Below, piece after piece: positions 1 to 13,840 of a stretch of 64,000 nt of DNA. The translations under genes were made by a program, and so were the position numbers. The first letter of the stretch is position 1, and each line of letters opens with the position of its first letter. The stretch is from a virus. The notes beneath the pieces are model-generated. The model searched no databases. It had not been told where the DNA came from and worked only from the letters and a program-made list of their open reading frames with translations. The DNA lies in IMG/VR virus record IMGVR_UViG_3300045141_000199, positions 1 through 64,000 of that record; one strand, written 5' to 3'.

Positions 1-76
1 AAACGCCTGTGGTACGAAGCTCTGCCCCTAATGGCAGGCCAGGCTTAGCGCCAGCGACGTTGCTAAAGTTCACTAA

Positions 77-274
77 ATGGCAATCGAAAAGCAGCCAACC
101 AAGGAACGTAAAAGGGTGTATTTGAGCCCAACTGGCCCCAAAAAGGTCGGCGTTTTGCCGGCCGCGGTGGCCGGACCGACCCGGCCGGTCAAAAAGAACG
201 CCTCCGGAGGCACCAAGAGCCGCCAGATGGCCCGTCCGGCGCAGGGCCGCCCGAACTTGCAATCCACGATCTAA
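77..274 (+). CDS. small basic hypothetical protein (probably leaderless)
   Basis: 65-aa K/R-rich ORF; TGc-TAAAGT extended -10 lies 7 nt before the ATG. Confidence 0.45.
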   Translation: MAIEKQPTKERKRVYLSPTGPKKVGVLPAAVAGPTRPVKKNASGGTKSRQMARPAQGRPNLQSTI

Positions 275-292
275 GGCCGCTATACTGCGAGG

Positions 293-451
293 ATGGAGCT
301 TTTCGTCCTCATCCTCTACTACTGCGTAATCGCCGTCTGCGCCCTGTTTGTGGCAGCTTTGGTTGCGTCCGTCTACTTGATCGTTGCCATCCTCGGCGGG
401 CTCTGGTACCTTGTGGAGCGCGTGAGGGGAAAGACCCCGGCCGCAGACTGA
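293..451 (+). CDS. small membrane protein (52 aa)
   Basis: Hand-translated MELFVLILYYCVIAVCALFVAALVASVYLIVAILGGLWYL...; TATACT 6 nt upstream of the ATG. Confidence 0.55.
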   Translation: MELFVLILYYCVIAVCALFVAALVASVYLIVAILGGLWYLVERVRGKTPAAD

Positions 452-696
452 CGGGGATTCAGGTGCGGCCGGGGCGCTTCTGCTAGGCTGGTCGATGACC
501 GGCTCTGGTCGAAACGCTAGGAACGCCGTCGAGGGCAACTTCGGCGGCGTTCTGCTAGTCTGGCGGGGCGCCGCTCGCCTCCGTGGCTCACAGGCAGGGA
601 CGGGCGGCGCTGTGGTAACGCGTCTAGGTCCCTCAGAGCCCCGCCGGTCGTGGTCTTCCTTCCAGCATGATCGGCGGGGCTCTGCTATGCTGTAGC

Positions 697-768
697 GGTC
701 CTCCTCCTTTCCGAAGGACAAGCAGCCAGAAAGGCCCGCCCTCCTCATCCCGAGGGCGGGCCTTATTT
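697..768 (+). ncRNA. predicted small RNA carrying anti-Shine-Dalgarno sequence
   Basis: TGc-TATGCT -10 at 683-691; CCTCCTTTC at 703-711 mostly in the loop of a GTCCT/AGGAC hairpin; ends in a 13-bp terminator-like hairpin 731-764. Confidence 0.5.
731..768 (+). terminator. intrinsic terminator-like hairpin
   Basis: aaggcccgccctc / gagggcgggcctt stem followed by attt. Confidence 0.65.
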
Positions 769-786
769 CTGCTACGATCGCCGCCG

Positions 787-1176
787 ATGGCGACGAACAA
801 TCAGCTCGTACGCAAGGGGCGCAAGGCCAAGCACCGGAAAGTCAAGCGGCCTGCGCTGGAAGGCGCTCCGCAGAAGCGCGGCGTCTGCATGCGCGTGTAC
901 GTCATCAAACCGCGCAAGCCGAACTCGGCCTTGCGGAAGGTCGCTCGCGTGCGCCTGGTCAACGGCATGGAGGTAACGGCCGCCGTACCTGGCGAGGGCC
1001 ACAACCTACAGGAGCACTCCGTAGTTCTGTTGAGGGGCGGAAGCGTGCCCGATCTCGGCGGAGTGAACTACAAGGTAATCCGCGGCGTGCTCGATTGCGC
1101 TGGCGTCGCCGATCGCGAGCAGTCGCGCTCGAAGTACGGTAAGAAGAAAGACGAGGCGCGCAAGAAAAAGCGGTGA
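787..1176 (+). CDS. rpsL: 30S ribosomal protein S12 (uS12), divergent phage-borne copy
   Basis: [10 protein letters not shown]...PQKRGVC...[13 protein letters not shown]...[10 protein letters not shown]...RSKYG is colinear with S12; start placed at ATG 787, 8 nt after TGc-TACGAT. Confidence 0.96.
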
Positions 1177-1201
1177 CAGACGGGAGCGTAGAATCGCTCC
1201 C

Positions 1202-2563
1202 ATGCGATTGAAGCGAATCATCGCAGTCATTGCAGGATGTGTCGCCTTCTCGGCAGGCACAGCTCAAGCGGCGGTCCCTGGGCCAGCTCTTTCCGCTGAA
1301 GGCCACTCTTTGAAATGGACGGCCGTAGCTAGCGCTACCCAATATAAGCTCTACGGCTCGTACGAAAATCAGCACGTCGCGTACGTGATCTCGGGCTTAT
1401 CGGCCACACCAAGTGAAATTGTCGGCCAATCCGTGCGCTGGAAAGTCAAAGCAATGGCGCCGGCCGTATCGCGTTGGTCTAATACAGTAACGATCGCTTA
1501 TTCTGAAGGCGAAAGCCAGAAAGAAAAAGAAGAACGCGAAGCTAAAGAAAAAGCTGAACGCGAACAGAAAGAACGTGAAGAAAGAGAACTGAAAGAAAAA
1601 ATCGAACGGGAAGAACGCGAAGCTAAAGAAAAAGAAGAACGAGAAAAAGAACAGACCGGCGAAGCTGGCAAGGTGAAAAACCGCTTAGATGCCAGAACGG
1701 AATACGATGGTATCCCGGTCGAATGGTTTCAGAAACTTACTAGATTATTAGCCTACCCAACGGCCGGCGACCGCTATCCGAAAGCCGGCGTTGAAACCGT
1801 TGCTTATCACGACGCATGGACGACCTGGGGCTCAAGCGGCGCTACTCATAAGAGTGAATACGTAGCCTGGGTTCACCGTGATAAGGAAATCGGCAAATAC
1901 GCCGGCCAATTCATGGACGATATCAACTATGGGCCTAGCGCTGGCAATAAGGCCGGAACGGACGCCCAATACCGTGAATTAGTCGAAGCCGTTCGAGCTG
2001 AGTTAGGGCCGGCCGGCATAATTGAGATGAACTCTCAATACGCCGATATCTGGCCGCAAATCAAGGCTAAAAACCCTGATGTGCTAAAAGCCCTTGAATA
2101 TGTCAATGTTGTTACTAAGGAGTTTAACGTTGATGCCACGTCAGGCATTAACAGCTCTGATAGATACCGAGAATTCATGGAATTCACTGATTTCCTAGAG
2201 AGCAAAAAAATTGGCATTACGATGTCGGGTGACTCGAATCATAATGGCAGCGCCGAACGTGAGTACAGTTTGGCAACTTACTACTTAGTGAATGACGGAC
2301 TAGACTATATCGGATTTGCTAAACAGTCACCATCGAGCCAGTATCCAGGATTACTGCTCAACATCGGCAACGCAACCAGTCCACGCGAACGCTCATCTAG
2401 TGGTGTCTGGAAACGTAGCTTCGCTAAAGGCGTTGCTTACACTGTTGAGCCGGGCGCAGCAACTCAGACGATAACCCTAGCTAAACCAATGAAAAGGCTA
2501 GACGGCACCACAGTTAGCAGCGTAACGTTGGCCCCCGCTAACGGCGCCGTGCTACAATTCTAA
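1202..2563 (+). CDS. secreted protein with E/K coiled-coil linker and putative glycoside hydrolase (GHL15-like TIM barrel) domain
   Basis: Signal peptide ending AQA; EKEERE repeats; FMDDIN and WKRSFAKGV motifs resemble GHL15-type proteins (family recalled, not searched). Confidence 0.55.
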   Translation: MRLKRIIAVIAGCVAFSAGTAQAAVPGPALSAEGHSLKWTAVASATQYKLYGSYENQHVAYVISGLSATPSEIVGQSVRWKVKAMAPAVSRWSNTVTIAYSEGESQKEKEEREAKEKAEREQKEREERELKEKIEREEREAKEKEEREKEQTGEAGKVKNRLDARTEYDGIPVEWFQKLTRLLAYPTAGDRYPKAGVETVAYHDAWTTWGSSGATHKSEYVAWVHRDKEIGKYAGQFMDDINYGPSAGNKAGTDAQYRELVEAVRAELGPAGIIEMNSQYADIWPQIKAKNPDVLKALEYVNVVTKEFNVDATSGINSSDRYREFMEFTDFLESKKIGITMSGDSNHNGSAEREYSLATYYLVNDGLDYIGFAKQSPSSQYPGLLLNIGNATSPRERSSSGVWKRSFAKGVAYTVEPGAATQTITLAKPMKRLDGTTVSSVTLAPANGAVLQF

Positions 2564-2565
2564 GC

Positions 2566-2855
2566 ACAAGCAGCCCCAGCGACGATGGCTAAGCAACAGC
2601 TTAGAGGAAGTTCGGGGCACCCCCTATAGGGAAACCTATAGGTTCACAGGCCGGCGGGAGTTAGTAACCTAAACGTTAGAACCGCGAGCGCGCCGCACGG
2701 CGCAGTTGCCAAGGCTGGGTGCGATCCCAAAACAGGCACCTAAGGTTCGCTAGGGTGACTAAGGTAGGGAGCGGTACTCCGTTGGGAGGCGCGGCCGACG
2801 GCCGCAGATAGATCATCGTCTAAAACAGAACCCCGGCTATGCTGGGGCTGCTTGT
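2566..2855 (+). ncRNA. rnpB: RNase P RNA (compact variant)
   Basis: Perfect 15-bp P1 (2566-2580/2841-2855); P2 gacgatg/catcgtc; P3; CR-I GAGGAAGTTCGGGGCAC pairs with CR-V ACAGAACCCCGGCTAT to form P4 with bulged U; P15 with GGTA motif; AGATAGAT CR-IV. Confidence 0.93.
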
Positions 2856-2867
2856 AATATAAGGTAA

Positions 2868-3194
2868 ATGGCGAACCTCGTAGTCAAGCTAAATGACACC
2901 TACCCTCCTGTAGAAGCGACTCTAGAATCAACCGTTAGCGGGTCGCTGGCGCCAATCGATTTAACTCCCGCTACCTCGATCTTCTTTATTATGAAGCTGG
3001 GCGTAGTAAAAATCAAGGAATTAGCTACGGTTATCGATGCTGTAAACGGCAAGGTACAGTATAAATGGAAAGCTGGGGATACTTCCACAGTAGGCATCTA
3101 TCGCGTTGAGTGGGAGATACACTGGACCGGCGGCATCGAGACGATCCCTAACGAAGGCTACGATACGATCGAAATTCAGGAAGACCTTGGCTAA
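2868..3194 (+). CDS. BppU-like baseplate/virion Ig-fold protein
   Basis: VKLNDTYP...GKVQYKWKAGDT...EWEIHW...TIPNEGY pattern typical of BppU N-terminal domains. Confidence 0.65.
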   Translation: MANLVVKLNDTYPPVEATLESTVSGSLAPIDLTPATSIFFIMKLGVVKIKELATVIDAVNGKVQYKWKAGDTSTVGIYRVEWEIHWTGGIETIPNEGYDTIEIQEDLG

Positions 3195-4894
3195 TGGAGG
3201 TATTTGCTAATACCAAAGTTCCCTTAGGAAACCTGACCAAAGCTCTAACTGCTTCAACCGGCGACAACAAACTGAAAATCTCCACGGCCGCGCCCGTGGC
3301 TTTACGCGCTGGAACATTCCGCATCATGGTCGATCAGGAGATCATGATGGTAACAGTGGCGCCCGGGACCACCGTGGAATGGCAGGTCGAACGCGCGATC
3401 GAGGGCAGCCCGCTCGAAATACACGCCAACACGGCCCCCGTCTCGCACAAGTTCACGGCTGGGGCGGCTGCCCTGTTCCTACAGACAGCCAGCCCTACTC
3501 TAATTACAGGGTCTGTAGCTGAAAATTTTGTCCCGACAGGCACTTCTATACCGGGAGTTGCGGCCTGGGCCGAAAGCGTGGGGGCTACGAAAGCGTGGGT
3601 TGAAGAACATTTCCTAGAGAGCGAACACGTAACCGAACTCCGAGGCTTTGCAAATGGAGTCCCTAGCGGATCGGGCGGAGTAGCTAATGCCGGCACGATT
3701 CCTTTCGGAATTGGCCTCGGAATAATGAAGCAAATCCCTCTTGTGCTGTTAGTGCAAGAATTAGCGGGGCTAAGGCTAGATATAGAAACCACGCCAGTAA
3801 CTACTGCCATAACTTTGGCTTATGGTAAAGCCTACAAACTGGAAACGCCTGGCCTGGTGTACAAAATCGAAGTGGCTTCAACGTCTGGACTGGAAATCCT
3901 GGTTGAGAACACATCATCGGGCGAAGTCAAACTCAAAGGAAAGTTCGGCGAAGAAACCGAAACGACGATCATCCTTAAAAACAAAGAAGCCATAACGTAT
4001 AAGACGGACATTCACGGCTGGCTTTTCCCTCTAACTTACAGCCGAACGGCTGCTCAAATCCAGGAAATCGCGGTGCCAAAGGGCACAAACCGCGCTGCAA
4101 TTGGCTTCGCAGAAGGCTTTGAAGCCGGCGGTAAAGCCAACAGCTCGACTACGCTGCTGAAAGGCGCGTTTGTCGGCGTTGTAAACGGCAAAGCTCCAAC
4201 GGATGGCACATTCGCGTTGGGTGATTGGGTCATTGACCGCTCGAACGGCATGACCTGGGTGTGCTCGGTCGCCGGAACTCCCGGAACGTGGATTAACGAA
4301 TCTACTAATTACCTAACTAAGAATTCGATCGATGCGGTTGCATCCGGGTTTGACGCCCAAACATTCGATATTCCTAACGATGAAAAAGCACCTGTCAAAG
4401 AAAACGTGCATTTCGTGAAGATCATGATTCCGATCACCACGAAAATCGGTAAAGTCTACATGATTATTCCGACCGGCGGAAAAGGCGCCGCCATAGCAGC
4501 CACAAGTCGCCTAGGCATTTACGGCAAACCTGTAGCGGGCGTTTCTACGAGACTGTGGGAATCAGGCTCGATGGAAACACAATTTGCAGAAGAAAATACC
4601 ATGCTGAAAATAGCGGTGTCACCCAACATCAACATAACCGGCGGTCCCGAAGAATTCATATGGATAGCGGTTCTTGGTGTGGGAACCACAATGCCTAAAT
4701 TCGCCTCCGCGCTAGGAATTGGAACGCCGGCCGTGCAGAACACCGGAGTTACCGCAAGTGAAATGCGCTTCGGTATCGACAAAAATACACCAAAAACCAC
4801 GCTGCCTGCGTCATATACGACGGCTACCGAATTCTTAAAGACAAGCTCGACCGCGGCCGCGGCGCCGTTCTTTTGGGCGGCGGTGAGCAAATAA
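3194..4894 (+). CDS. putative tail fibre/virion structural protein
   Basis: 566-aa G/T/A-rich ORF; PTDGTFALGDW...WVCSVAGTPGTW hinge motif common in tail spikes; TAATG coupling. Confidence 0.6.
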   Translation: MEVFANTKVPLGNLTKALTASTGDNKLKISTAAPVALRAGTFRIMVDQEIMMVTVAPGTTVEWQVERAIEGSPLEIHANTAPVSHKFTAGAAALFLQTASPTLITGSVAENFVPTGTSIPGVAAWAESVGATKAWVEEHFLESEHVTELRGFANGVPSGSGGVANAGTIPFGIGLGIMKQIPLVLLVQELAGLRLDIETTPVTTAITLAYGKAYKLETPGLVYKIEVASTSGLEILVENTSSGEVKLKGKFGEETETTIILKNKEAITYKTDIHGWLFPLTYSRTAAQIQEIAVPKGTNRAAIGFAEGFEAGGKANSSTTLLKGAFVGVVNGKAPTDGTFALGDWVIDRSNGMTWVCSVAGTPGTWINESTNYLTKNSIDAVASGFDAQTFDIPNDEKAPVKENVHFVKIMIPITTKIGKVYMIIPTGGKGAAIAATSRLGIYGKPVAGVSTRLWESGSMETQFAEENTMLKIAVSPNINITGGPEEFIWIAVLGVGTTMPKFASALGIGTPAVQNTGVTASEMRFGIDKNTPKTTLPASYTTATEFLKTSSTAAAAPFFWAAVSK

Positions 4895-5224
4895 ATGCAG
4901 ATTCCTAGCTTATTACCTGAATTGCTTGGTTCAACCTCTGGCGGCGGTGAATCGACATCGGTCGTTGAAATCTTTCAGGCGTCTGGTTATGGCGATGATT
5001 TCCTTGGAAACCTTGCCTGGGGCGGAGATTTCGTTGAAACCACCGTTACGATCATCGAAGTTACGCCGTCTCCGATTGAACCGCCGACAAAGGCACCTAT
5101 TTTTGGGTTGGTGTCGGCCGCGCCCCTCAGAGTGCTTATATCTAAAGGCAATTTGAACGACAGAAAATCGGGCGCAACCCTAACCCCTTACAAAGCTAAG
5201 AGCCACTTCTATGCCGGACAGTAG
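4895..5224 (+). CDS. hypothetical protein
   Basis: ORF abutting both neighbours in the operon. Confidence 0.55.
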   Translation: MQIPSLLPELLGSTSGGGESTSVVEIFQASGYGDDFLGNLAWGGDFVETTVTIIEVTPSPIEPPTKAPIFGLVSAAPLRVLISKGNLNDRKSGATLTPYKAKSHFYAGQ

Positions 5225-5888
5225 AAAGAATTTCTCAGTTAGCACGGTGGCGAAAGCCCCTGAACCGCCGACGACGGGCCTCAGCCTGGAAGTTACGGCC
5301 GGTGAGGGCGTACGCTTTCCTACGCCGCCATTCAATGCGGTGGTAGCTCCCGAAAAAGAAATCGCCACGCCCGAAAATGCTGAGGTTATTCGGGTGACGG
5401 CAATTTCTGTGAACAAATTCACGATCGTTCGCAAACAAGAGAGCAGCGTAGCTCAGCCAATAGCGGCCGGCTTCAGGATTTACTCGGGACAAACCGATAA
5501 GGTCCTGAAAGATATCGAAGCTGGCTTGGTTGGACCGGCCGGTCCTACGGGGGCTACTGGCCCGCCCGGAACCGAACTCGCGCTAGGCGTTGCGGTTACA
5601 ACTACCCCGCGGGTTGTTAAAAAAACCGACGCTGGCAAATCACTTGACGTAAACAGCGCCGTAACCGTGACCATCAAGGTCGAACCGTTCGGCGTAGAAG
5701 GCATACCTGAAGGTAGCGTGTTCGAAATTCTGAAACTAGGAACAGGTAAAGTCAAAATCGAATTTGTCAGCCCGGCAACTGCAATTCCCGTTGCTGCGAC
5801 TTACGAACTTAGGGAAACCGGATCGATCGCTGGTCTGCGGAAAATAGATGGAGCGAATAAATGGGCGATCAGCGGAGATTACGTCTAA
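5211..5888 (+). CDS. putative virion fibre protein with short collagen-like stretch
   Basis: N-terminal AEVIRVTAIS...TIVRKQE module; GPAGPTGATGPPG; C-terminal WAISGD. Confidence 0.6.
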   Translation: MPDSRKNFSVSTVAKAPEPPTTGLSLEVTAGEGVRFPTPPFNAVVAPEKEIATPENAEVIRVTAISVNKFTIVRKQESSVAQPIAAGFRIYSGQTDKVLKDIEAGLVGPAGPTGATGPPGTELALGVAVTTTPRVVKKTDAGKSLDVNSAVTVTIKVEPFGVEGIPEGSVFEILKLGTGKVKIEFVSPATAIPVAATYELRETGSIAGLRKIDGANKWAISGDYV

Positions 5889-8089
5889 TGCGCGGCCGTA
5901 GGATTTCAACTGAGCGCGGCAAAGTAGTGAAACCGCCTCCTACGATTTTGCCGCAGGGATTGTACTCATGGGGGTTTGACTACGAGGGGGCGCTCGGCGG
6001 CGGCTACGAGCATTATGGCCAAGGTTTCTCTTTCCCTCAAGGCGTAATCACGGTCGATAAAGTAGTAGACATAGCCTGCGGCGAGCGCCATACGATTGTC
6101 GCCAAAGAAAATGGCGCGATCTACATGTGGGGTACCAAGAGGATTGGTGTTCAAGGCGACGGAGCCGGAACCGACCTAGCTGGCGAAGAATCACAGCCTA
6201 CCCCATTGCAGGTCATGGGCGGGATTCCGTTATGGAAAGACGAATTCTTTGAAGATAAATCGAAACCACCGAAAACATTTGAACTAAAAGAAAGTGAAGC
6301 GCCGGTAGCTCCGCTTATGGCGACTTCCCCAACAAACATTCTTATACCCTGCACGCAAGTTGCGGCCGCCAATATTACTGCCTTTGCTCGTACCGCCGAC
6401 GGTCGCGTGCTGGCGTGGGGTTCGGGCGCAGACGTAGGCTTGCTGGCTAACGGCTGGCACCCGGAACACTCAGAATTTCCCCAGCGTAAATACGAAGCTG
6501 GCAAATTACGGCCGCAGCGCGCCCCATGGTGGGTCCAAACTGGCCCGCCGATTCAGGCCGTAGCTCCTGGTGAAACGAATATCCTCAAAGGTGTCAAGGA
6601 AGTTGCTGCTACTTTCTTCTGCGCGTATTTCCTAAAGGAAAACGGCGAAGTTTGGTATTGCGGTTCACCTACTCAAGTAGAAGACGTTATCTACGCTGAA
6701 CCCGAGCCTCTATGGGCGGCGGAAGGTGATCTTCGCGCTGTAGAAATTGATTGTGGACACGATCAATACACTTTGCGGCTCAATAATGGTGAAGTTCGCG
6801 TAGTCGGCTATTGCAAGGAAGGTATGTGGGGAACCGGAGTCGAAGAGGAAAAAGAACTCAAAAAAAATGTTACTAGGGAAGTCAAGACACCAGAAATTTC
6901 TCCAGGCGTGCCGCTAACTGGCGTGATCCAGATATCACAGGGCCAATACAATGTAAAGGCGCTAAAAAGCGATGGAACCCTCTGGACATGGGGATCGAAT
7001 GGAACTTACCCCGGCAACAACCCAACCGTTTTCAACGATGAACCTTCGCAGGGGCTTGGCGCTCCCATAGAGCGGCCGCCTACAAAGCGGCCGGTTCAGA
7101 TAACCTCGCTAGGAAATCAAGTAAAAGAAATCCGTTGCGGAGGCATGATCCGCGGAACGGGAACTTTCGGGGGCGATGTGTGTATCGCGTTGATGAAAGA
7201 CGAAACCATTAGGACGTGGGGGAAGAACAACGACACCGATACCGGCCCTTCTAACTTTCACGGTCAGGGAACCGGAACTCTTGGCGATACAACCTACGAG
7301 AATAAAGGGGCGCCAACCCCGGTGGCGCTCAGCAACATTACCAAAGTAGAAACTGGACAGGCACATATGGTTGTCGTCCAGCAACCTGGAGCGCCCGCAA
7401 CGCCTACGATAAAAGCGACTATAGCCGGCAAAGTTGTAACGGTCGAATGGGAACCCGTAGCAGGAGCGGCCGGAGAAATGCCAACATGGAGGCTGCCGGA
7501 ATCGTGGGACGTTCTTATTCAACGCCAGGGAGAAAATCCCGCCACGAAAAAATCGGAGGCCGTCCAGCGTAAAAACAAACTGTCTTACGCTACGCGAAGT
7601 CAGGCGTTTACTGTCACGACCGAACCTTGGCCTGGAGCACCTAAAACGTTTGAAATAAGTGTTATCGAGAACGCAAAAGGAGAATCGCCGGCTATTACTA
7701 CGCCTGGTGCGATTCCTTACAGCGGTGATCCAGGGATAGGAATAAACGCAGTTTTGCTTTCGTCGTCGGGAGGCAAACTCAAAGTAGAATGGGCCAACCC
7801 CGTAAAAGAAGAATTAGGCTGGTATGTTGAGTGGCAACGTAACGAAGAATATCTCGACAAAAATGGCAAACTTACGAAAGACAACTTTGTCCGCGAGCCA
7901 GAAATCCAAAACCCGGCAGCGCGCTCATATGAATGGACCCCAACCCCTTCTCCTCACGGCCTTACTACTACACAGTTTGTCGTGGAAGTCTATGGAACCT
8001 TCGGCGGCCGCACAAAGGCCGGCGGATCAAATGAAGATGCAGGCTCGTATAGAAAGCGCGTAGCTTTCATCGAAGTTCCTACCTCGTAA
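5888..8089 (+). CDS. RCC1/BLIP-II repeat beta-propeller protein with C-terminal Fn3-like domains
   Basis: Repeats IACGERHT...GAIYMWG, DGRVLAWG, DGTLWTWG; start placed at the TAATG overlap (5888). Confidence 0.8.
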   Translation: MRGRRISTERGKVVKPPPTILPQGLYSWGFDYEGALGGGYEHYGQGFSFPQGVITVDKVVDIACGERHTIVAKENGAIYMWGTKRIGVQGDGAGTDLAGEESQPTPLQVMGGIPLWKDEFFEDKSKPPKTFELKESEAPVAPLMATSPTNILIPCTQVAAANITAFARTADGRVLAWGSGADVGLLANGWHPEHSEFPQRKYEAGKLRPQRAPWWVQTGPPIQAVAPGETNILKGVKEVAATFFCAYFLKENGEVWYCGSPTQVEDVIYAEPEPLWAAEGDLRAVEIDCGHDQYTLRLNNGEVRVVGYCKEGMWGTGVEEEKELKKNVTREVKTPEISPGVPLTGVIQISQGQYNVKALKSDGTLWTWGSNGTYPGNNPTVFNDEPSQGLGAPIERPPTKRPVQITSLGNQVKEIRCGGMIRGTGTFGGDVCIALMKDETIRTWGKNNDTDTGPSNFHGQGTGTLGDTTYENKGAPTPVALSNITKVETGQAHMVVVQQPGAPATPTIKATIAGKVVTVEWEPVAGAAGEMPTWRLPESWDVLIQRQGENPATKKSEAVQRKNKLSYATRSQAFTVTTEPWPGAPKTFEISVIENAKGESPAITTPGAIPYSGDPGIGINAVLLSSSGGKLKVEWANPVKEELGWYVEWQRNEEYLDKNGKLTKDNFVREPEIQNPAARSYEWTPTPSPHGLTTTQFVVEVYGTFGGRTKAGGSNEDAGSYRKRVAFIEVPTS

Positions 8090-8108
8090 AGCACTCGTCG
8101 CTAAGATG

Positions 8109-8117
8109 TGCTATAGT
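8109..8117 (+). promoter_or_regulatory. extended -10 promoter of tRNA cluster 1
   Basis: TGcTATAGT; the same TGnTATAGT precedes cluster 2 (10291-10299) and cluster 3 (12683-12691). Confidence 0.7.
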
Positions 8118-8168
8118 TATCCGTCCGGTTGATAGCCGGCCTCGCCCCACAGGGATGTGGGGCTCCAC

Positions 8169-8241
8169 GGGGGTTTAGCTCAGTTGGGAGAGCGCCTGTT
8201 TTGCAAGCAGGAAGTCAAGGGTTCGAGTCCCTTATCCTCCA
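8169..8241 (+). tRNA. tRNA-Ala(UGC)
   Basis: Cloverleaf with G3:U70, anticodon TGC. Confidence 0.95.
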
Positions 8242-8243
8242 TC

Positions 8244-8315
8244 GGACGATTAGCTCAGTGGGAGAGCTTTCGGTTTACACCCGGAGAGTCATAGGTTCGA
8301 ATCCTATATCGTCCA
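8244..8315 (+). tRNA. tRNA-Val(UAC)
   Basis: Cloverleaf, loop TT TAC AC. Confidence 0.93.
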
Positions 8316-8319
8316 TAAC

Positions 8320-8394
8320 GGTGAATTAGCTTAGTCCGGGCAAAGCACCCGTCTGATACGCGGGCGATCCAAGGTTCGAATCCTTGATTCACCA
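8320..8394 (+). tRNA. tRNA-Ile(GAU)
   Basis: Cloverleaf, loop CT GAT AC. Confidence 0.93.
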
Positions 8395-8399
8395 CTCTC

Positions 8400-8472
8400 G
8401 GTTCCGTAGCTCAATGGGAAGAGCGTCCGTCTTATATGCGGTCGGTTCTAGGTTCAAGTCCTAGCGGAACTA
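8400..8472 (+). tRNA. tRNA-Ile(UAU)
   Basis: Cloverleaf, loop CT TAT AT. Confidence 0.88.
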
Positions 8473-8476
8473 CTTC

Positions 8477-8549
8477 GCAGCATTAGCTCAGTTGGTAGAG
8501 CGCCACCGTGCCATGGTGGAGATCATGAGTTCGAATCTCATATGCTGCT
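8477..8549 (+). tRNA. tRNA-Gly(GCC)
   Basis: Cloverleaf, loop GT GCC AT, discriminator U. Confidence 0.93.
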
Positions 8550-8554
8550 TACTT

Positions 8555-8628
8555 GCCTCCGTAGCATAATTGGATAGTGTGGCGGACTTTTAATCCGAAA
8601 GATGTGGGTTCGAATCCCACCGGGGGTA
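8555..8628 (+). tRNA. tRNA-Lys(UUU)
   Basis: Cloverleaf, loop CT TTT AA. Confidence 0.9.
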
Positions 8629-8632
8629 CTTC

Positions 8633-8728
8633 GCGTGAGTAGCTGAATTGGCAGAGCGGCCGTCAAAACGTCGCCCCAGCACTGGTTTTTCACACCAGCG
8701 GATGCGGGTTCGAGTCCCGTCTTGCGCA
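8633..8728 (+). tRNA. tRNA-Glu(UUC) with ~23-nt insertion between D and anticodon arms
   Basis: GCGTGAG/CTTGCGC acceptor, CTGGT-TTTTCAC-ACCAG anticodon arm, intact T arm; 96 nt. Confidence 0.75.
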
Positions 8729-8734
8729 CTACAC

Positions 8735-8807
8735 AGGCCGCTAGCTCAACTGGAAGAGCAAGACCCTCTTAAGGTCGAGGTTATGGGTTCGATTCCCATG
8801 CGGCCCA
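8735..8807 (+). tRNA. tRNA-Lys(CUU)
   Basis: Cloverleaf, loop CT CTT AA, A1:C72 mismatch. Confidence 0.88.
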
Positions 8808-8809
8808 TC

Positions 8810-8884
8810 GCACCCATAGCTCAGTGTGAGAGCACCTGCCGTTCTAAGGCAGGAGGTCCGGCGGTTCGATTCCCCGTGGGTGCA
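8810..8884 (+). tRNA. atypical tRNA, anticodon UCU (Arg?) with 6-bp anticodon stem
   Basis: CCTGCC-GTTCTAA-GGCAGG; bulged C in T stem. Confidence 0.7.
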
Positions 8885-8887
8885 TAC

Positions 8888-8960
8888 GCCATCGTAGCTC
8901 AGCCGGTAGAGCACTTCCTTGGTATGGAAGAGGTCCAGAGTTCGATTCTCTGCGTTGGCT
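8888..8960 (+). tRNA. tRNA-Thr(GGU)
   Basis: Cloverleaf, loop TT GGT AT. Confidence 0.93.
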
Positions 8961-8962
8961 TC

Positions 8963-9029
8963 GCCTCCTTTTGTGGCAGCGGACGCGCCTTGTAAGCGTG
9001 GCAGCAGGGTTCGATTCCCTGAGGGGGCT
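8963..9029 (+). tRNA. tRNA-Thr(UGU), shortened D region
   Basis: 67 nt; acceptor, anticodon (CT TGT AA) and T arms intact; only 14 nt in the D region. Confidence 0.8.
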
Positions 9030-9032
9030 TAC

Positions 9033-9104
9033 GCTCTCAAGGTGTTCATGGTGGCATCGCGCTTTCGTAATGCGCAGGATCGAGTTCGAATCTCGATGAG
9101 AGCT
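9033..9104 (+). tRNA. tRNA-Thr(CGU)
   Basis: Cloverleaf, loop TT CGT AA. Confidence 0.87.
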
Positions 9105-9112
9105 TTTACAGT

Positions 9113-9179
9113 GCCTATCGTCGCCGCGTTGACAGTAGACGATGGGCCGCATCCGAGCCATAACGCGGTAAAGCTCGGA
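9113..9179 (+). ncRNA. unclassified kissing-hairpin structured RNA inside tRNA array
   Basis: 10-bp and 7-bp hairpins whose loops are complementary over 9 bp. Confidence 0.6.
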
Positions 9180-9188
9180 CAGAATTTC

Positions 9189-9260
9189 GCAGGAGAGATG
9201 TTACTGGCTGCATATCGGCCTTCCACGCCGAGTGAGCGGGTTCGAGTCCCGTCTCCTGCT
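9189..9260 (+). tRNA. tRNA-Gly(UCC)
   Basis: Cloverleaf, loop CT TCC AC. Confidence 0.9.
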
Positions 9261-9265
9261 TACAA

Positions 9266-9338
9266 GCTGCGATAGCTCAGTTGGTAGAGCTTGCCGTTGA
9301 AGCCGGCAGAGTCGGCGGTTCGAGTCCGTCTCGCAGCA
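9266..9338 (+). tRNA. tRNA-Phe(GAA)
   Basis: Cloverleaf, loop TT GAA GC. Confidence 0.9.
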
Positions 9339-9648
9339 CTTCGATATCTAGATTCTCAGGGCGCATTTGCTCGTTTATCCACGCGTCAAGATTTACTGTT
9401 ATTCGCGCGTGTTGTATTCTTACCCATCGTTGGAACTCGGCCGACTTTGCCATGCGCACAAACGCTTTCTTCTTGTTCTGAAGTTGCGTGCGCTCCTCAC
9501 GCGATTCGCCGCGGGCGCCGCTAGGCGAATGAATTACACGAACTCCTGTGTCCCGCTTGTCTTTATTCTGGCCACCCTTACCTCCGCAGCGGAAGGTCTG
9601 TACTACGCAATCTTTGATCGTGACGGTTAGTATCTTTTCACGCGCCAA
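9277..9648 (-). CDS. stand-alone class I release factor GGQ domain protein (ArfB/RF-1-domain-like peptidyl-tRNA hydrolase)
   Basis: FRCGGKGGQNKDKRDTGVRVIH...REERTQLQNKKKA; no codon-recognition domain. Confidence 0.88.
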   Translation of the reverse strand: MAREKILTVTIKDCVVQTFRCGGKGGQNKDKRDTGVRVIHSPSGARGESREERTQLQNKKKAFVRMAKSAEFQRWVRIQHARITVNLDAWINEQMRPENLDIEVLRDGLEPPTLPASTASSTN

Positions 9649-10249
9649 CGAAAGCCTCTGGTGAATCGGCCTTCAAATGCTCGGGCTCGTAACAGCCGAG
9701 TATGTAGCCATCTAAGAGCGCCTTCAAATTCACGGGGCTGTAATGTGTTTGCTCGACCGACACATTAATCTGGTTGGCGCTAAACGGCGTAAAGTCCTGG
9801 CCCTTTCCGCCATATCCGTTGTTGTGGATATGGCCATGCACGCGAATATAAAACTTGTGGTATTCGTCGTGCTTGAGCGGATAGTGCGCAAAGCTCACAT
9901 GGTAAAGGCGGTTGCCGGCCGTGTAGGGGAGCGCGAACGGCTTTACGATTTTGAAACCGCACTCACGATAAAAGCTGGGGCGCTGCCGATCGTGATTACC
10001 GAGGATCAGATACTTAGGCGAGCCCGTGAGATGTTTCGAGATAACATGCTTGAACAGGCCGTTACTCTTCCAGACGAGATCGCCTAGATGTAAGAGAGCA
10101 GCGTCCGGCGGGACAGCGCTAGCCCATTCCTCCATAACGATCTGCTCATGGTCTGTCGGCCTGTGGCAGTACCCAATGATGTTGTTATGGCCGAAATGTG
10201 AATCAGATGTGATCCATGTGCTCGCTGGATCGATAAGTGGTACGCTCAT
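9638..10249 (-). CDS. calcineurin-like metallophosphoesterase
   Basis: SDSHFGH, HLGD, GNHD, HYP, HGHIH motifs. Confidence 0.9.
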   Translation of the reverse strand: MSVPLIDPASTWITSDSHFGHNNIIGYCHRPTDHEQIVMEEWASAVPPDAALLHLGDLVWKSNGLFKHVISKHLTGSPKYLILGNHDRQRPSFYRECGFKIVKPFALPYTAGNRLYHVSFAHYPLKHDEYHKFYIRVHGHIHNNGYGGKGQDFTPFSANQINVSVEQTHYSPVNLKALLDGYILGCYEPEHLKADSPEAFVGA

Positions 10250-10308
10250 CTAGGAATCATATCATAACTATCTCGGCTGCGCTTGGTTTGTGATATAGTA
10301 TTTAGCTC

Positions 10309-10389
10309 GCTGCGATAGCGAAGTGGACAAACGCGGGTGGCTGTAAACCATCTCCCTCGGGTACCTAGGTTCGAATCCTAGCCGCAGCA
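10309..10389 (+). tRNA. tRNA-Tyr(GUA)
   Basis: Cloverleaf with variable arm, loop CT GTA AA. Confidence 0.92.
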
Positions 10390-10392
10390 TAC

Positions 10393-10476
10393 GGAAGGTG
10401 GCGGGCAGGTGCCCAAACTGGATTTGAACCCCAGGCTACGGCTAGCGTCGTAAGGTTTCGATTACTTCACCTTCCG
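10393..10476 (+). tRNA. tRNA-Ser(UGA), 8/4 cloverleaf
   Basis: 8-bp acceptor GGAAGGTG/CACCTTCC, 4-bp T stem, long variable arm, G73. Confidence 0.82.
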
Positions 10477-10480
10477 CTTT

Positions 10481-10569
10481 GGTTAGTTGGCAGAGAGGCC
10501 GAATGCACTGGTTTGCTAAACCAGCGTGGGACTAAAAGACCACCGAAGGTTCGAATCCTTCACTAACCG
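10481..10569 (+). tRNA. tRNA-Ser(GCU)
   Basis: Cloverleaf with long variable arm, loop TT GCT AA. Confidence 0.92.
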
Positions 10570-10645
10570 CTTAATTCCGCTGTGGGCCACTGGTCTACAG
10601 GCGGGGCGATTTGCCCGCGTTTCGCCTTCAAGCAACCGGGTACAT

Positions 10646-10716
10646 GGCGCAGTGGCCGACTGGTTAGGCGGTTGCCTGCAAAGCTTCTAAATCCGGTTCG
10701 ATTCCGGGCTGCGCCT
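10646..10716 (+). tRNA. tRNA-Cys(GCA)
   Basis: Cloverleaf, loop CT GCA AA, U73. Confidence 0.9.
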
Positions 10717-11049
10717 CTAAATGTCGTCGTAAATCGGTTCAGGCCGATAGCCAATCCGGCGCCGAACGCGATCGAGATTCGGGCAGATAAACGACGGCTC
10801 GCAGCACCCGCCTTCTAAAGCAGTCAACTCGTCAAAGGTCATATCCGGCCGCAGTGGACAAGTACATTGCCTGGCCTCTTGTTCGCGTATCCCCTCTTCA
10901 ATGATTCGACGTATGCCGGCGTCTGAATGGGCTGCCGGCATTGCGTAGGCTGGTTTGTGCTCAGGGCAATTGCGCGGCCGCCTGCCGCGCTTGAGTGGCG
11001 CCTCGTAATCATGATCGCCGATCTCGCAGTAAAGGATTCGCGTGCTCAT
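10717..11049 (-). CDS. Cys/His-rich hypothetical protein
   Basis: Start placed at MSTRILYCEIGDH (ATGA overlap with upstream ORF); CxxxxH...CxxH and further Cys. Confidence 0.6.
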   Translation of the reverse strand: MSTRILYCEIGDHDYEAPLKRGRRPRNCPEHKPAYAMPAAHSDAGIRRIIEEGIREQEARQCTCPLRPDMTFDELTALEGGCCEPSFICPNLDRVRRRIGYRPEPIYDDI

Positions 11050-11216
11050 ACTCGCTCCCAGCCATCGAATCGACTCCTTGCGGGCAAGGCGCCTTTGTCG
11101 CCCTGCTCGCGCAGCAACGTCCAAGCGTCATCATACCCGATCGCGTAAAACTTGCCAGCCGGGGATTCGATCAGCATCCGCGGCCGTGCTTGAATGACTT
11201 CCTTACTTTTAGTCAA
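11046..11216 (-). CDS. small hypothetical protein
   Basis: Hand-translated TTG-start ORF MTKSKEVIQARPRMLIESPAGKFYAIGY..., overlapping both neighbours. Confidence 0.45.
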   Translation of the reverse strand: MTKSKEVIQARPRMLIESPAGKFYAIGYDDAWTLLREQGDKGALPARSRFDGWERV

Positions 11217-12642
11217 TTAACTTCCACGCCCTTTCGTACAGCCACTCGTTAGTGTTTAGCTTCGGTTGAGATAGAACCTCATGCAAAAGTTGACGCTGCA
11301 TCTCGCCGATCGCTCGGCCCTCATAGCCCATTTCGCGGAGTTCGGTTCCGTCGATCGCCAATTCCTTGACGCTGATTGGTACGCCGGCCTTCTGCGCTCG
11401 TACTTGCTCGGCGGCAATCCATGACAGCACTTCCATCGCCTCAGTGATATCTCCGCCCTTGCCAATCACGTCGCATACGCGATGCGTGATTAGATCGCGC
11501 AGTAGCTCATCCCCTAGTTCCGAGCGTAGCCGGCGTATCTTGAACGGACGGATGTTCTCATGCAAGGCGAGCATGTGGCGCTCGATTAGCGTTTTTACGT
11601 CCTGCATTAGACGGTGCGGGGCGTTCAAACGATGCAGGGCTTCATCGGCAAGTTTGGCGCTCCAATACTCATGCGAGTAAAGAGAAGGGACTCCGGCTCC
11701 TAGTTCGACAGCTCGCTTTGGTGCGAGCGCGTAGTAGTGCTGAAGCCCCTCCTCGTCAGTCCACGCCATCGTAGGCTTCCCGCAATCATGGAAAAGTAGC
11801 GCCATACGCACGCGCATGGGCGCGTGGGAGTGCATGTTAGCGGCCGCCTGCACAGCATCAAAGGTATGGTCGCTTGTCGTCTTTTCGTGATAGCGCGAGC
11901 GTTGGTTGTAATCGATCATCGGCGCTAGCTCAGGCAAGAGAATCTGAAGCACGCCAGTTGCGGCCGCTAGTTCAAGAGCGTAACCAGGGCTGGCACCCAT
12001 TAGAATTCCTTCCAGCTCGGTTAGTGCCGTGCCGCTAACTCCCTTTTGAGTCAGGCCAGTCACGGCTCCCGAATGCTCCTGCATTTGGCTATACGCTTCC
12101 GGCGACAGCCGGAAGTGCGGCAGCTTACTGATAAAACGAAGCGCCCGCAGCATCCTAAGTGGGTCTTCCTCGAAAGAGCCGGGGTGTGTCGTGTGAATTA
12201 GCTTTTCGTTGATATCCTTAGCGCCGCCTAGCGGATCGATTAGCGATCCACTGCGAACATCGCGATAAATAGCGTTGATCGTGAAATCGCGTCGCTGGGC
12301 GTCTAGCTCAAGCGGCAGGTTCTCGTTGATAATCATCTCGAAGGCATGCCGCCCATCGCCTGTAGAGCGCTCTGCGCGTGGCAGCACAACCTCAAGCAGG
12401 CCGAGTCCTCGGACCTGCGCCCGGACCCCGATCTGAGGGCCGTTGCCGCGGAGGCGAAGGGAGCCAATCTTGGCTCCTGCGCCCGATAGCGCAGCCGCTA
12501 CGTCCCATAGGGGCGCTCCTCGGACTACGTAATCGGAGTCCTTGCTTTGGCGGCCTAGCAGCTCATCCCGAACCGATCCGCCCACGCGATAGATTTCGGG
12601 AAGGTCGAGAGAGGCCATGAACTGATCGGGAGTCGTGCGCAT
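11209..12642 (-). CDS. cca: class II CCA-adding tRNA nucleotidyltransferase with HD domain
   Basis: VGGSVRD...DSDY, RRDFTINA, EDPLRMLR, LFHDCGK; start placed 6 nt after TGg-TACGAT. Confidence 0.93.
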   Translation of the reverse strand: MRTTPDQFMASLDLPEIYRVGGSVRDELLGRQSKDSDYVVRGAPLWDVAAALSGAGAKIGSLRLRGNGPQIGVRAQVRGLGLLEVVLPRAERSTGDGRHAFEMIINENLPLELDAQRRDFTINAIYRDVRSGSLIDPLGGAKDINEKLIHTTHPGSFEEDPLRMLRALRFISKLPHFRLSPEAYSQMQEHSGAVTGLTQKGVSGTALTELEGILMGASPGYALELAAATGVLQILLPELAPMIDYNQRSRYHEKTTSDHTFDAVQAAANMHSHAPMRVRMALLFHDCGKPTMAWTDEEGLQHYYALAPKRAVELGAGVPSLYSHEYWSAKLADEALHRLNAPHRLMQDVKTLIERHMLALHENIRPFKIRRLRSELGDELLRDLITHRVCDVIGKGGDITEAMEVLSWIAAEQVRAQKAGVPISVKELAIDGTELREMGYEGRAIGEMQRQLLHEVLSQPKLNTNEWLYERAWKLID

Positions 12643-12706
12643 CGCTAAATCGTACCACATCTCGCTAAGTGGCGCTAAGTTATGATATAGTTATCAATCC
12701 AGTTGA

Positions 12707-12777
12707 TGCGGAATCGTCTAAAGGCAGGACCGCGGGCCTTGAACCCGCTTGTCTAGGTTCGAATCCTAGTTCCGCAG
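12707..12777 (+). tRNA. tRNA-Gln(UUG)
   Basis: Cloverleaf with U1:A72, loop CC TTG AA (C33). Confidence 0.9.
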
Positions 12778-12808
12778 CTAACGGGAAGGGTTAAACCTTC
12801 CCGGCCAA

Positions 12809-12879
12809 TGGGGAGTCGTCTAACGGCAAGACGCGCGGCTCTGAATCGTAAAATGTGGGTTCGATTCCTACCTCCCCAG
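12809..12879 (+). tRNA. tRNA-Gln(CUG)
   Basis: Cloverleaf, loop CT CTG AA. Confidence 0.9.
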
Positions 12880-12887
12880 CTTATCGA

Positions 12888-12960
12888 TCTAGCGTGGTGT
12901 CAACGGCAGCACGGTCGGCTGTTAACCGATTAGGTCCAGGTTCGAATCCTGGCGCTAGAG
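12888..12960 (+). tRNA. tRNA-Asn(GUU)
   Basis: Cloverleaf, loop CT GTT AA. Confidence 0.93.
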
Positions 12961-12964
12961 CTTA

Positions 12965-13035
12965 CGGGGTGAAGTGTTATGGCTGCACCGGGCGCTTGGA
13001 ACGCTCTAGTCAGAGTTCAATTCTCTGCTCCCCGA
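12965..13035 (+). tRNA. tRNA-Pro(UGG)
   Basis: Cloverleaf with C1:G72, loop CT TGG AA. Confidence 0.9.
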
Positions 13036-13040
13036 TATCC

Positions 13041-13124
13041 GCCGACATGATGGAATTGGTAGACGTGCTGGTCTTAGAAACCAGTGTCCGCAAGGACGTA
13101 AGGGTTCGAGTCCCTTTGTCGGCA
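13041..13124 (+). tRNA. tRNA-Leu(UAG)
   Basis: Type II cloverleaf, loop CT TAG AA. Confidence 0.93.
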
Positions 13125-13129
13125 TATAA

Positions 13130-13213
13130 GCCTGTGTGGCGGAATTGGTATACGCGGCGGACTTAAAACCCGCTGGTCTTCGGGCCTTTCGAGTTCGAGT
13201 CTCGACACAGGTA
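13130..13213 (+). tRNA. tRNA-Leu(UAA)
   Basis: Type II cloverleaf, loop CT TAA AA. Confidence 0.92.
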
Positions 13214-13216
13214 TAA

Positions 13217-13299
13217 GCGTGAGTGGTGAAACGGTATACACAGCGGGCTCAAATCCCGCCGGTCGGAAGATCATGCGAGTTCGATTCTCGCCTCACGTA
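13217..13299 (+). tRNA. tRNA-Leu(CAA)
   Basis: Type II cloverleaf, loop CT CAA AT. Confidence 0.92.
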
Positions 13300-13303
13300 T
13301 TTC

Positions 13304-13377
13304 CCCTCTATAGCTCAGTGGACAGAGCACCAGGCTACGAACCTGGGTTGTCGTGAGTTCGAATCTCGCTAGGGGGT
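13304..13377 (+). tRNA. tRNA-Arg(ACG)
   Basis: Cloverleaf, loop CT ACG AA. Confidence 0.92.
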
Positions 13378-13382
13378 TACAA

Positions 13383-13456
13383 GCTGCTGTAGCTCAGTTG
13401 GCCAGAGCGTCCGCCTGTCGAGCGGAGAGTCGAGGGTTCGAGTCCCTTCAGTAGCG
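13383..13456 (+). tRNA. tRNA-Asp(GUC)
   Basis: Cloverleaf, loop CT GTC GA, G73. Confidence 0.92.
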
Positions 13457-13458
13457 CT

Positions 13459-13532
13459 GTGACGGATGCCAAAGTGGTCGAGGCGTCAGGTTGTGATCCT
13501 GGCTAGAGCGGGTTCGAGTCCCGTCCGTCACC
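13459..13532 (+). tRNA. tRNA-His(GUG), no encoded G-1
   Basis: Cloverleaf, loop TT GTG AT, C73; base at -1 is T. Confidence 0.9.
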
Positions 13533-13625
13533 CTTCCCTTGCAAAGGAACGGTAGACTGCTTAAAGCAGTTGGCCGCAATGCTGCCGGCGGTCGAGGCTG
13601 AGACGCTTTCACTTGCCGGCATCCA

Positions 13626-13694
13626 GGGAGATAGGTCATGGTGACCAAGCGGATTCCAAACCCGCAGGCGAGCGTTCAATTCGTTCATCTCCCG
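13626..13694 (+). tRNA. tRNA-Trp(CCA), atypical D arm
   Basis: GGGAGAT/ATCTCCC acceptor, GGTCA-TGG-TGACC D arm, loop TT CCA AA. Confidence 0.82.
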
Positions 13695-13698
13695 CTCC

Positions 13699-13766
13699 GG
13701 CTCTGATTTTGGTATTCGACCGCGTTTCATACGCGCGGGATGAAGGTTCGACTCCTTCCAGAGCTA
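13699..13766 (+). tRNA. tRNA-CAU (elongator Met or Ile2), no D stem
   Basis: GGCTCTG/CAGAGCT acceptor, loop TT CAT AC, intact T arm; D region unpaired. Confidence 0.78.
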
Positions 13767-13768
13767 TC

Positions 13769-13840
13769 GCCTCTATAGCTCAGCGGAAGAGCTGCCGCCT
13801 TCTAAGCGGCCGGCCGTGAGTTCGAATCTCACTAGGGGCT
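13769..13840 (+). tRNA. tRNA-Arg(UCU)
   Basis: Cloverleaf, loop CT TCT AA. Confidence 0.93.

Follow-up and report, generated by a model that had tools for sequence, protein, structure and literature searches.

RNase P RNA is the ribozyme that trims the 5' end of new tRNAs; it is among the few universal ribozymes and is seen as a cellular housekeeping gene. The DNA described here raises the question of whether a phage can carry such an RNA of its own and, if so, what it does there with much of its substrate-reading part gone. The window covers the first 64,000 nucleotides (nt) of a virus record in IMG/VR that is 89,773 bp long (IMGVR_UViG_3300045141_000199; completeness 74% according to CheckV). 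At positions 2566-2855 on its + strand lies a 290-nt element that, judged from its sequence, is a phage-encoded homologue of bacterial type A RNase P RNA. This RNA is probably a working catalytic subunit of RNase P, derived from the bacterial type A form and processing the tRNAs of the phage.

Homology and catalytic domain of the RNA

The limits of the gene, 2566-2855, were drawn from a covariance-model match, the list of open reading frames (ORFs) and a minimum free energy (MFE) z-score. The gene is intergenic, lying in the gap at 2564-2867 between an ORF at 1202-2563 and another at 2868-3194. The Rfam model RF00010 matches positions 2570-2855 from end to end (model positions 1-367, 54.0 bits), with an E-value of 8.7e-16 in a 601-nt search and of 3.1e-17 in the whole 89.8-kb record. 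An earlier note on this DNA had read the stretch as an RNase P ribozyme and had proposed a covariance-model search as a check, and this match over the full model span bears that reading out. Homology to bacterial type A RNase P RNA is concluded because the E-value is as low as 8.7e-16, despite a score below the gathering cut-off; an Rfam scan of the window at gathering thresholds reported tRNAs only, and not the RNase P RNA. In addition, the RNA has an MFE z-score of -5.3 against dinucleotide shuffles, none of 200 shuffles folding equally well. When the members of the RNase P clan were compared by cmscan, bacterial class A was the best and the only one reported, which leaves no match to the archaeal type T model (RF02357). 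As to class B (RF00011), a hairpin occupies the P5.1 slot, P10.1 and P15.1 were not identified, and class A won the clan competition.

Helices were verified by a pair-by-pair script over indexed positions, apart from the P16/17 pairs of two related phage loci, L004 and L018, which were read by hand. P4 and P5 were compared with rnpB of Escherichia coli MG1655, from which the E. coli numbering is also taken. An RNAalifold structure computed from a MAFFT alignment of four clade members was discarded, as it gave a nested P4 and lost P1 and P2; the helices were checked by index instead.

The catalytic domain is complete. It has P1 to P5, among them the pseudoknot P4 and its bulged U, as well as P18 and a P15 that contains GGU. 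P1 is a perfect helix of 15 bp between 2566-2580 and 2841-2855. It is followed by the 5' strand of P2 (2581-2587, 7 bp with 2814-2820), a helix that covaries in the related loci L003 and L004, and by the P3 hairpin (2589-2604, 6 bp, AACA loop), which ends with the G that opens GAGGAA. The block of conserved region (CR) I, GAGGAAGUUCGGGG, at 2604-2617 comprises the joining segment J3/4 and the 5' strand of P4 with a bulged U at 2612, while the CR-V block ACAGAACCCCGGCU at 2825-2838 comprises J2/4 and the 3' strand of P4. Together, the two strands (2609-2617 and 2831-2838) form a pseudoknot of 8 bp plus the bulged U, reproducing the class A arrangement in which P4 is flanked by CR-I (GAGGAAAGUCC-like) and CR-V (ACAGAACCCGGCU-like). 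P5 consists of 4 bp, CACC at 2618-2621 with GGUG at 2718-2721, and leads into J5/15, CGA at 2722-2724, where the cmscan alignment, the E. coli numbering and the comparison of family members place G2723 at the E. coli position A248.

P15 (2725-2728 with 2767-2770) encloses a P16/17-like hairpin at 2735-2759 and the GGU of loop L15 at 2763-2765, 1 nt before the 3' strand of the helix. In class A RNAs, a GGU in the internal loop of P15 serves to pair with the RCCA at the 3' end of tRNA, and this GGU is arranged in the same way in E. coli and in 14 of 14 phage RNAs. Between P15 and P18 there is an extra hairpin (2777-2788, 4 bp, GUUG loop), of which L003 has a version of 4 bp and L004 one of 6 bp. 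It is followed by a P18-like hairpin (2791-2805, 6 bp, GAC loop; GCAA is the loop there in L004) and, according to the cmscan alignment and the pair check, by a CR-IV-like block, AGAUAGAU, that runs into the 3' strand of P2 (2806-2820). P1, P2, P3, P5 and P15 stand in the canonical class A order, accompanied by CR-IV, and each of these helices shows covariation among the relatives.

Compared with E. coli rnpB, three of the eight P4 pairs are changed, all of them still paired (A67-U359 to G-C, G68-C358 to U-G and C71-G356 to G-C), and the bulged U is kept. Such compensated changes in P4 had been noticed before, as had the 15-bp P1, P2, P3, P4 and P5, in which the script found every pair to be standard, and the L15 GGU motif. 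The earlier statement that neither P6 nor P17 is evident holds for P6 alone. For the P6 pseudoknot, in which J5/7 pairs with the loop of P17, no partner was found, the P16/17-like loop AGGUUCGC having no complement by eye; as to P17, the hairpin at 2735-2759 is P16/17-like.

Specificity domain, phage relatives and genomic setting

The specificity domain (S-domain) is reduced, and CR-II and CR-III are not recognisable in it. P5 encloses 96 nt, compared with 164 nt in E. coli, and about 140 S-domain positions of the model (about 74-213) are set by cmscan against 82 unmatched nt, leaving the domain essentially unaligned; this agrees with the previous estimate of about 95 nt without canonical CR-II and CR-III. 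Where class A has P7-P14 and the T-loop modules of CR-II and CR-III, a P7-like helix and two or three short hairpins remain, at 2649-2716. The P7-like helix has 4 bp (2649-2652 with 2713-2716) and leaves 60 nt between its strands. Within these lies either a 4-bp helix (2654-2657 with 2682-2685), in which L004 shows one compensated change, or a 5-bp helix that excludes it (2653-2657 with 2706-2710). There are also an inner hairpin at 2669-2679 and a hairpin, SB, at 2690-2703 (5 bp, GCAC loop; four compensatory changes against L003). The fold of this remnant is insecure and weakly supported.

A further hairpin of 8 bp, capped by GAAA, lies at 2623-2642 (+ strand) in the P5.1 position, between P5 and the P7-like helix. 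Its 5' strand is AUAGGG, the segment that in type A RNAs is the single-stranded J5/7, the strand of P6. With AUAGGG paired locally, there is no P6 pseudoknot, and the local GAAA hairpin replaces it. The hairpin had been described as P9-like; its presence and its GAAA cap stand, while its slot is that of P5.1 and not of P9.

The RNA belongs to a family. Exact-pattern scans of IMG/VR for the two P4 strands of the variant yielded 22 stretches at first and at least 119 in a further round; when the two strands were required to lie within 520 nt of each other, 17 of the 136 sources (135 loci and the window) contained both. These are the window, at least 15 viral loci and one doubtful locus, L027. 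The viral loci amount to about 11 distinct RNAs (L002, L003, L004/L018/L023, L005, L007/L015/L021, L010, L011, L014, L017, L028 and L094), with the P4 strands 173 to 415 nt apart. The GAGGAAGUUCGGGG and ACAGAACCCCGGCU strands are thus found identically in other phage-borne RNase P RNAs, which also have P5 and P15 with its GGU. Nine RNAs were scanned with Rfam, including that of the window and excluding L005, L007 and L011; each of the nine is located in or close to a tRNA array, three have a transfer-messenger RNA (tmRNA) nearby, and only L002 reaches the gathering score. The RF00010 scores run from 191.1 bits for L002, a bona fide type A RNA with P7-P12 still present, through 66.7 (L014), 63.5 (L017), 54.0 (window), 48.6 (L028), 32.6 (L094) and 28.4 bits (L004) to 19.1 bits (L003), and L010 gives no match at E <= 1.

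The closest architecture is found in L003, L004 and L018. Between the window phage and the L003 phage, the portal proteins share 71%/59% identity; the values are 46% for L004 and 47% for L018, and the portal of the window phage has no match in the L002 and L017 phages. Despite this divergence of the portals, the four RNAs have the same helices at the same positions, and all pairs checked are standard. Given in the order window, L003, L004 and L018, the pairs number 15, 9, 7 and 7 in P1; 7, 8, 7 and 7 in P2; 6, 6, 5 and 5 in P3; 7, 7, 8 and 8 in the P16/17-like hairpin (the hand-read helix of L004 and L018 being 170-177 with 190-197); 4, 4, 6 and 6 in the extra hairpin; and 6, 5, 4 and 4 in the P18-like hairpin. 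P4 has 8 pairs in each RNA, identical throughout, the P5.1-like hairpin has 8 in each, and P5, the P7-like helix and P15 have 4 in each. The window RNA is the shortest of this clade, at 290 nt compared with about 300-356 nt, and the P19 hairpin present in L003, L004 and L018 is absent from it.

Many of these pairs differ on both sides between the phages. When the window RNA is compared with L003 and with L004, respectively, double-sided changes number 4 and 6 in the P5.1-like hairpin, 4 and 1 in P3, 2 and 4 in P2, and 1 and 1 in P15, with a further 1 in P5, 2 in the extra hairpin and, against L003, 4 in SB. Family-wide, the four bases after the 5' strand of P4 are exactly complemented before J5/15, giving six versions of P5. 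The GGU lies 0-2 nt before the complement of the P15 5' strand in 14 of 14 phage RNAs, with 11 versions of the helix, and each of these 14 RNAs has a P3 hairpin that ends at the initial G of GAGGAA. Because helices are compensated across phages this divergent, the RNA is to be regarded as folded and functioning and not as a relic.

Outside the viral sequences, the paired P4 pattern with a gap of 260-290 nt had no match in 185,579 species genomes. The 17-mer of the 3' strand, AACAGAACCCCGGCTAT, occurs there in 101 stretches (L138-L238), a single one of which (L231) has the 5' partner. The other 100 are unrelated matches in bacterial genomes, many of them Bacteroidota, and have no RNase P 5' strand upstream. 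L231 carries an L014-like RNase P RNA at 451-847 (- strand) of a 12.7-kb contig in a metagenome-assembled genome of a Nitrososphaerales archaeon (JANWKP010000389.1), and is probably a mis-binned phage contig. A pattern for the clade subfamily found no member beyond L003 in metagenome contigs. So far as exact-pattern searches can tell, this version of P4 seems specific to phages.

Other small RNAs are found beside some of these genes. tmRNA genes lie within a few kb of the RNase P RNA in L002 (10443-10753), L010 (6659-6983; a permuted tmRNA, 127 bits) and L014 (2250-2408). In L003, two tRNA-like pieces (5260-5460, - strand) stand directly upstream of the RNase P RNA. In the first, of 83 nt, the match to the tmRNA model is confined to its tRNA-like ends (36-44.6 bits), with about 310 model positions reduced to 19 nt, and the second is a T-arm-like hairpin ending a few nt before P1.

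The neighbourhood of the window RNA is phage-like, with genes for a portal protein (PF04860, E 9e-49), tail-fibre-like proteins and ribonucleotide reductase. The stretch was contained in a single sequencing run, a soil metagenome (DNA) that is probably its source, and in no RNA data set. No GenBank phage has a portal as much as 28% identical to that of the window phage, and BLAST searches of 50,697 GenBank phage records returned no match to the RNase P RNA in distant mode and none to window positions 1-12000 in near mode. Relatives of the 453-aa protein encoded upstream of the RNase P RNA gene were not found in the related-locus search. The phage also encodes, unusually, ribosomal protein S12 (667-1176, + strand; PF00164, E 8.8e-36), a gene found in none of five related RNase-P-bearing phage records. 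Additionally, a gene for a 742-aa protein with RCC1-like repeats (5861-8089, + strand; PF25390, 2.7e-43; PF13540, 2.8e-20) lies after the tail-fibre-like genes and before the first tRNA array.

Substrates, protein partner and competing explanations

The window phage has 33 tRNAs, 32 detected by ARAGORN and one, at 8633-8728, by Rfam. None of the 33 tRNA genes (8169-14064) encodes its CCA tail, and in 30 of them a T follows directly after the discriminator; a CCA-adding enzyme is encoded at 11209-12660 (- strand; PHROG, 5.5e-60). The spacers within the arrays are mostly 0-7 nt, and two pairs of genes overlap by 1-2 nt in the ARAGORN coordinates. The tRNA at 8633-8728 (+ strand; Rfam, 55.1 bits), missed by ARAGORN, is 96 nt long and is presumed to carry an insertion of about 23 nt.

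A match between the RNA and these substrates appears at the cleavage site. The A248 conserved in class A is replaced in the window RNA by G2723. J5/15 is CGA in two members of the clade (window and L003) and AGA in two others (L004 and L018), which places a G at position 248, while outside this clade it is CAA in nine family members and UAA in one, giving A248 in ten of ten. The nucleotide at leader position -1, N(-1), was counted for non-His tRNAs in the G248 clade (the window and the phage records G002, G003 and G006; n=121) and in seven A248 phages (n=91). In the former it is C in 62 cases, A in 40, U in 18 and G in 1; in the latter it is U in 58, C in 18 and A in 15 (Fisher p 3.6e-6 for C and 2.4e-13 for U). 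The fraction of U(-1) separates the two groups completely by record (0.08-0.25 with G248 and 0.33-1.0 with A248), and the excess of C(-1) is not mere base composition, since C occupies position -2 in only 22 of 121 cases.

According to the portion of Mao et al. (2023) that bears on this residue, A248 is well conserved, and the E. coli ribozyme with G248 is an efficient catalyst (PMC10465520). The same portion reports that, with a minimal substrate, the C(-1)/G248 combination is the fastest, and that U(-1) minimal substrates are cleaved 10-20-fold more slowly by the G248 enzyme (PMC10465520). These results are compatible with the N(-1) pattern in the genomes. The correlation suggests that enzyme and substrates are matched at the cleavage site and not at the elbow, through a mechanism that would involve residue 248.

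A more far-reaching possibility, put forward tentatively, is that the phage keeps a tRNA channel of its own, in which the slim RNA, with G in place of A248 and seated on host RnpA, would prefer phage pre-tRNAs with C or A at -1, where U is usual, without reading their elbow, and that the RNA stands for a large phage-specific lineage, recognisable by three swapped P4 pairs, of which all but the largest members lie unseen below the Rfam cut-off. If this were the case, tRNA maturation in the phage could stay fast and independent even with the RNase P RNA of the host in short supply, switched off or under attack.

The explanation favoured by the earlier note placed the match elsewhere, proposing a relaxed-specificity RNase P that lost its T-loop-reading modules through co-evolution with tRNAs altered in the D arm and elbow. 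The S-domain is indeed reduced, the CR-II and CR-III regions of the model have no counterpart, and a few of the tRNAs are atypical, including a 67-nt tRNA-Thr(UGU), the 96-nt tRNA with its insert and six ARAGORN tRNAs that fall below the Rfam cut-off. However, the T loop reads TTCRA in 33 of 33 tRNAs and the D loop contains GG in 32 of 33, while 27 tRNAs pass the Rfam cut-off with 32-72 bits. Furthermore, the tRNAs neighbouring equally reduced RNase P RNAs in other phages are ordinary and high-scoring. Because the elbow-forming elements are standard, co-adaptation to altered D arms is unsupported, and this explanation is unlikely.

The identity of the protein partner bears on a second alternative. 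With the Pfam RnpA model, which gave matches in 10 of 14 reference genomes used as positive controls, no rnpA was found in the 89.8-kb record or in any of five other RNase-P-bearing phage records, two of which are complete genomes with terminal repeats; the previous remark that no rnpA is visible in the window extends, in this way, to the full record and its relatives. Because neither the window phage nor its relatives encode a detectable rnpA, the RNA would appear to borrow RnpA from the host, or else to act as RNA alone. Any protein partner would then come from the host, which also fits an RNA whose main role is to capture host RnpA as a decoy, starving the host RNase P or redirecting the holoenzyme; an RNase P-like RNA of camelpox virus is discussed as a possible decoy in the excerpted text of PMC3001073. 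Yet a decoy would have no need of the catalytic and substrate-binding elements (the bulged U of P4, ACAGAA, the L15 GGU and J5/15) that are kept across unrelated phages, and the N(-1) shift that accompanies the change at residue 248 speaks for a catalyst acting on phage tRNAs. A decoy or hijacking function is therefore given little weight, about as little as co-evolution with altered tRNAs.

The reading of the RNA as a working, tRNA-processing subunit of RNase P thus remains the preferred one, and its steps may be set out as follows. The RNA would probably be transcribed from its own extended -10 promoter, for which TGCTACAAT at 2550-2558 (+ strand) is a candidate recognised by eye, whose end lies 7 nt short of the start of P1 at A2566; in L004, TGCTAGAGT stands a few nt before P1. 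The transcript would fold into the catalytic domain described above (P1-P5, P4 with its bulged U, P15 with GGU, and P18), with the elbow-reading S-domain cut to about 68 nt and a local hairpin in place of the P6 pseudoknot. Most likely with host RnpA, it could then remove the 5' leaders from the 33 tightly packed, CCA-less pre-tRNAs, whose 3' ends the CCA-adding enzyme of the phage may subsequently complete. A G at the A248 site and leaders that end mostly in C or A would provide the match at the cleavage site.

Several observations weigh against this reading. The RF00010 score of 54.0 bits misses the gathering score of 100 bits. Segments of the S-domain folded alone are no more stable than shuffles (z 0.5, -0.2 and 0.2, the first being that of the window RNA), two of its helices exclude each other, and hairpin SB has no counterpart in L004. 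The record is 74% complete, and an rnpA could sit in the missing part. No terminator was found on the + strand, the TGCTACAAT promoter was read by eye only, and a generic sigma-70 scan, which requires a -35 element, called no promoter on that strand. The correlation between residue 248 and N(-1) comes from one clade with three independent lineages, in which habits of host or clade are confounded with it, and whether 248 forms a direct Watson-Crick pair with N(-1) is a matter of dispute in published work, as the text seen of PMC10465520 indicates. That the RNA is a decaying, functionless relic of a captured bacterial rnpB, as the low Rfam scores (54 bits here, 19-28 bits for the nearest relatives) and the S-domain lacking a thermodynamic signal might suggest, is very improbable in view of its retention in phages with portals diverged to 46% identity, its identical P4 strands, the dozens of compensated base changes, and the presence of the variant core in about 11 distinct viral loci, some without detectable portal similarity.

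Comparison with known RNase P RNAs

In the literature searched, the one viral RNase P-like RNA encountered was the camelpox virus candidate, which, according to the part of the paper available here, was inactive on pre-tRNA in vitro (PMC3001073). As described there, it belongs to a eukaryotic virus and has only a loose structural similarity to RNase P RNA, unlike the window RNA. The earlier note had called phage RNase P RNAs rare and known mainly from huge phages; no report of a phage RNase P RNA was found in a search that covered papers and not the supplementary tables of huge-phage and IMG/VR surveys. The text of the Bcheck paper nowhere contains the words 'phage', 'virus', 'plasmid' or 'prophage' (PMC2996960), and the megaphages mentioned in the excerpt of PMC8172020 are reported with tRNAs and tmRNA only. 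The window RNA is the smallest of its clade and belongs to a phage family apparently not described in the literature. Because only one of the nine members scanned passes the Rfam gathering score, RNase P RNA genes are likely to be systematically missed in phage genomes.

Diverged RNase P RNAs that escape standard models are found in cells as well. In candidate phyla radiation (CPR) bacteria, as far as the consulted section goes, RNase P RNAs were detected only below the Rfam noise cut-off, and some lack P12, P13, P14 and P18 (PMC8172020); these are, unlike the RNA of the window phage, the sole cellular RNase P RNA of the bacterium. A natural loss of most of the S-domain is reported, in the extract seen, for archaeal type T RNAs of the Thermoproteaceae, which the standard covariance model also misses (PMC3579882). 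By that account type T is archaeal and chromosomal and works with several archaeal proteins, whereas the window RNA is viral, derived from type A and provided with an S-domain remnant of 68 nt. The likeness between the two is functional, residing in the reduced S-domain, and is not one of descent.

With a hairpin inserted between P5 and the P7-like helix, and with P6 lacking, the window RNA recalls type B RNase P RNA and its P5.1; in sequence it resembles type A. For the pairing of the J5/7 strand, a closer comparison is the isolated C-domain of the E. coli RNA (Eco CP RPR), which, in the passages available, is catalytic without the S-domain, and whose efficiency depends on a 'P6-mimic', formed when the A81-A86 (J5/7) strand is paired (PMC5839562). 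As presented there, Eco CP RPR is an artificial deletion in which the J5/7 strand pairs with the loop of P17, whereas in the window RNA the same strand is taken up by a hairpin with an adjacent complement.

The comparison with type A itself, represented by the M1 RNA of E. coli (rnpB), is the most direct. The order of helices is the same (P1-P2-P3-P4-P5, then P15-P16/17-P18-P2'-P4'-P1'), and the CR-I, CR-IV and CR-V blocks, the bulged U of P4 and the GGU of L15 are shared. The E. coli RNA has 377 nt and the window RNA 290 nt; the latter has no recognisable P8-P14, CR-II, CR-III or P6, places J5/7 in a local 8-bp hairpin, and differs further in the extra hairpin between P15 and P18, in three of eight P4 pairs swapped, in G248 and in being phage-borne without rnpA. 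The whole of this architecture is shared with L003 and L004/L018, and among the members of the phage family compared G248 is confined to the clade of the window.

Known components of the phage translation toolkit include tRNAs, tmRNA and the CCA-adding enzyme. With the RNA described here that toolkit, which in this phage takes in even ribosomal protein S12, would extend to the processing of tRNA 5' ends. To our knowledge, mutagenesis has so far been the only approach taken to the P4 pairs and to A248; the phage RNAs supply natural variants at these near-invariant positions, and the reading of leader position -1 by residue 248 becomes testable with matched natural sets of enzyme and substrates. 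Set beside type A as a whole, the family forms a natural series of reduction, from a near-full type A RNA (330 nt, 191 bits) to RNAs of about 215-260 nt, and reveals which elements the ribozyme is able to lose or rebuild in vivo.

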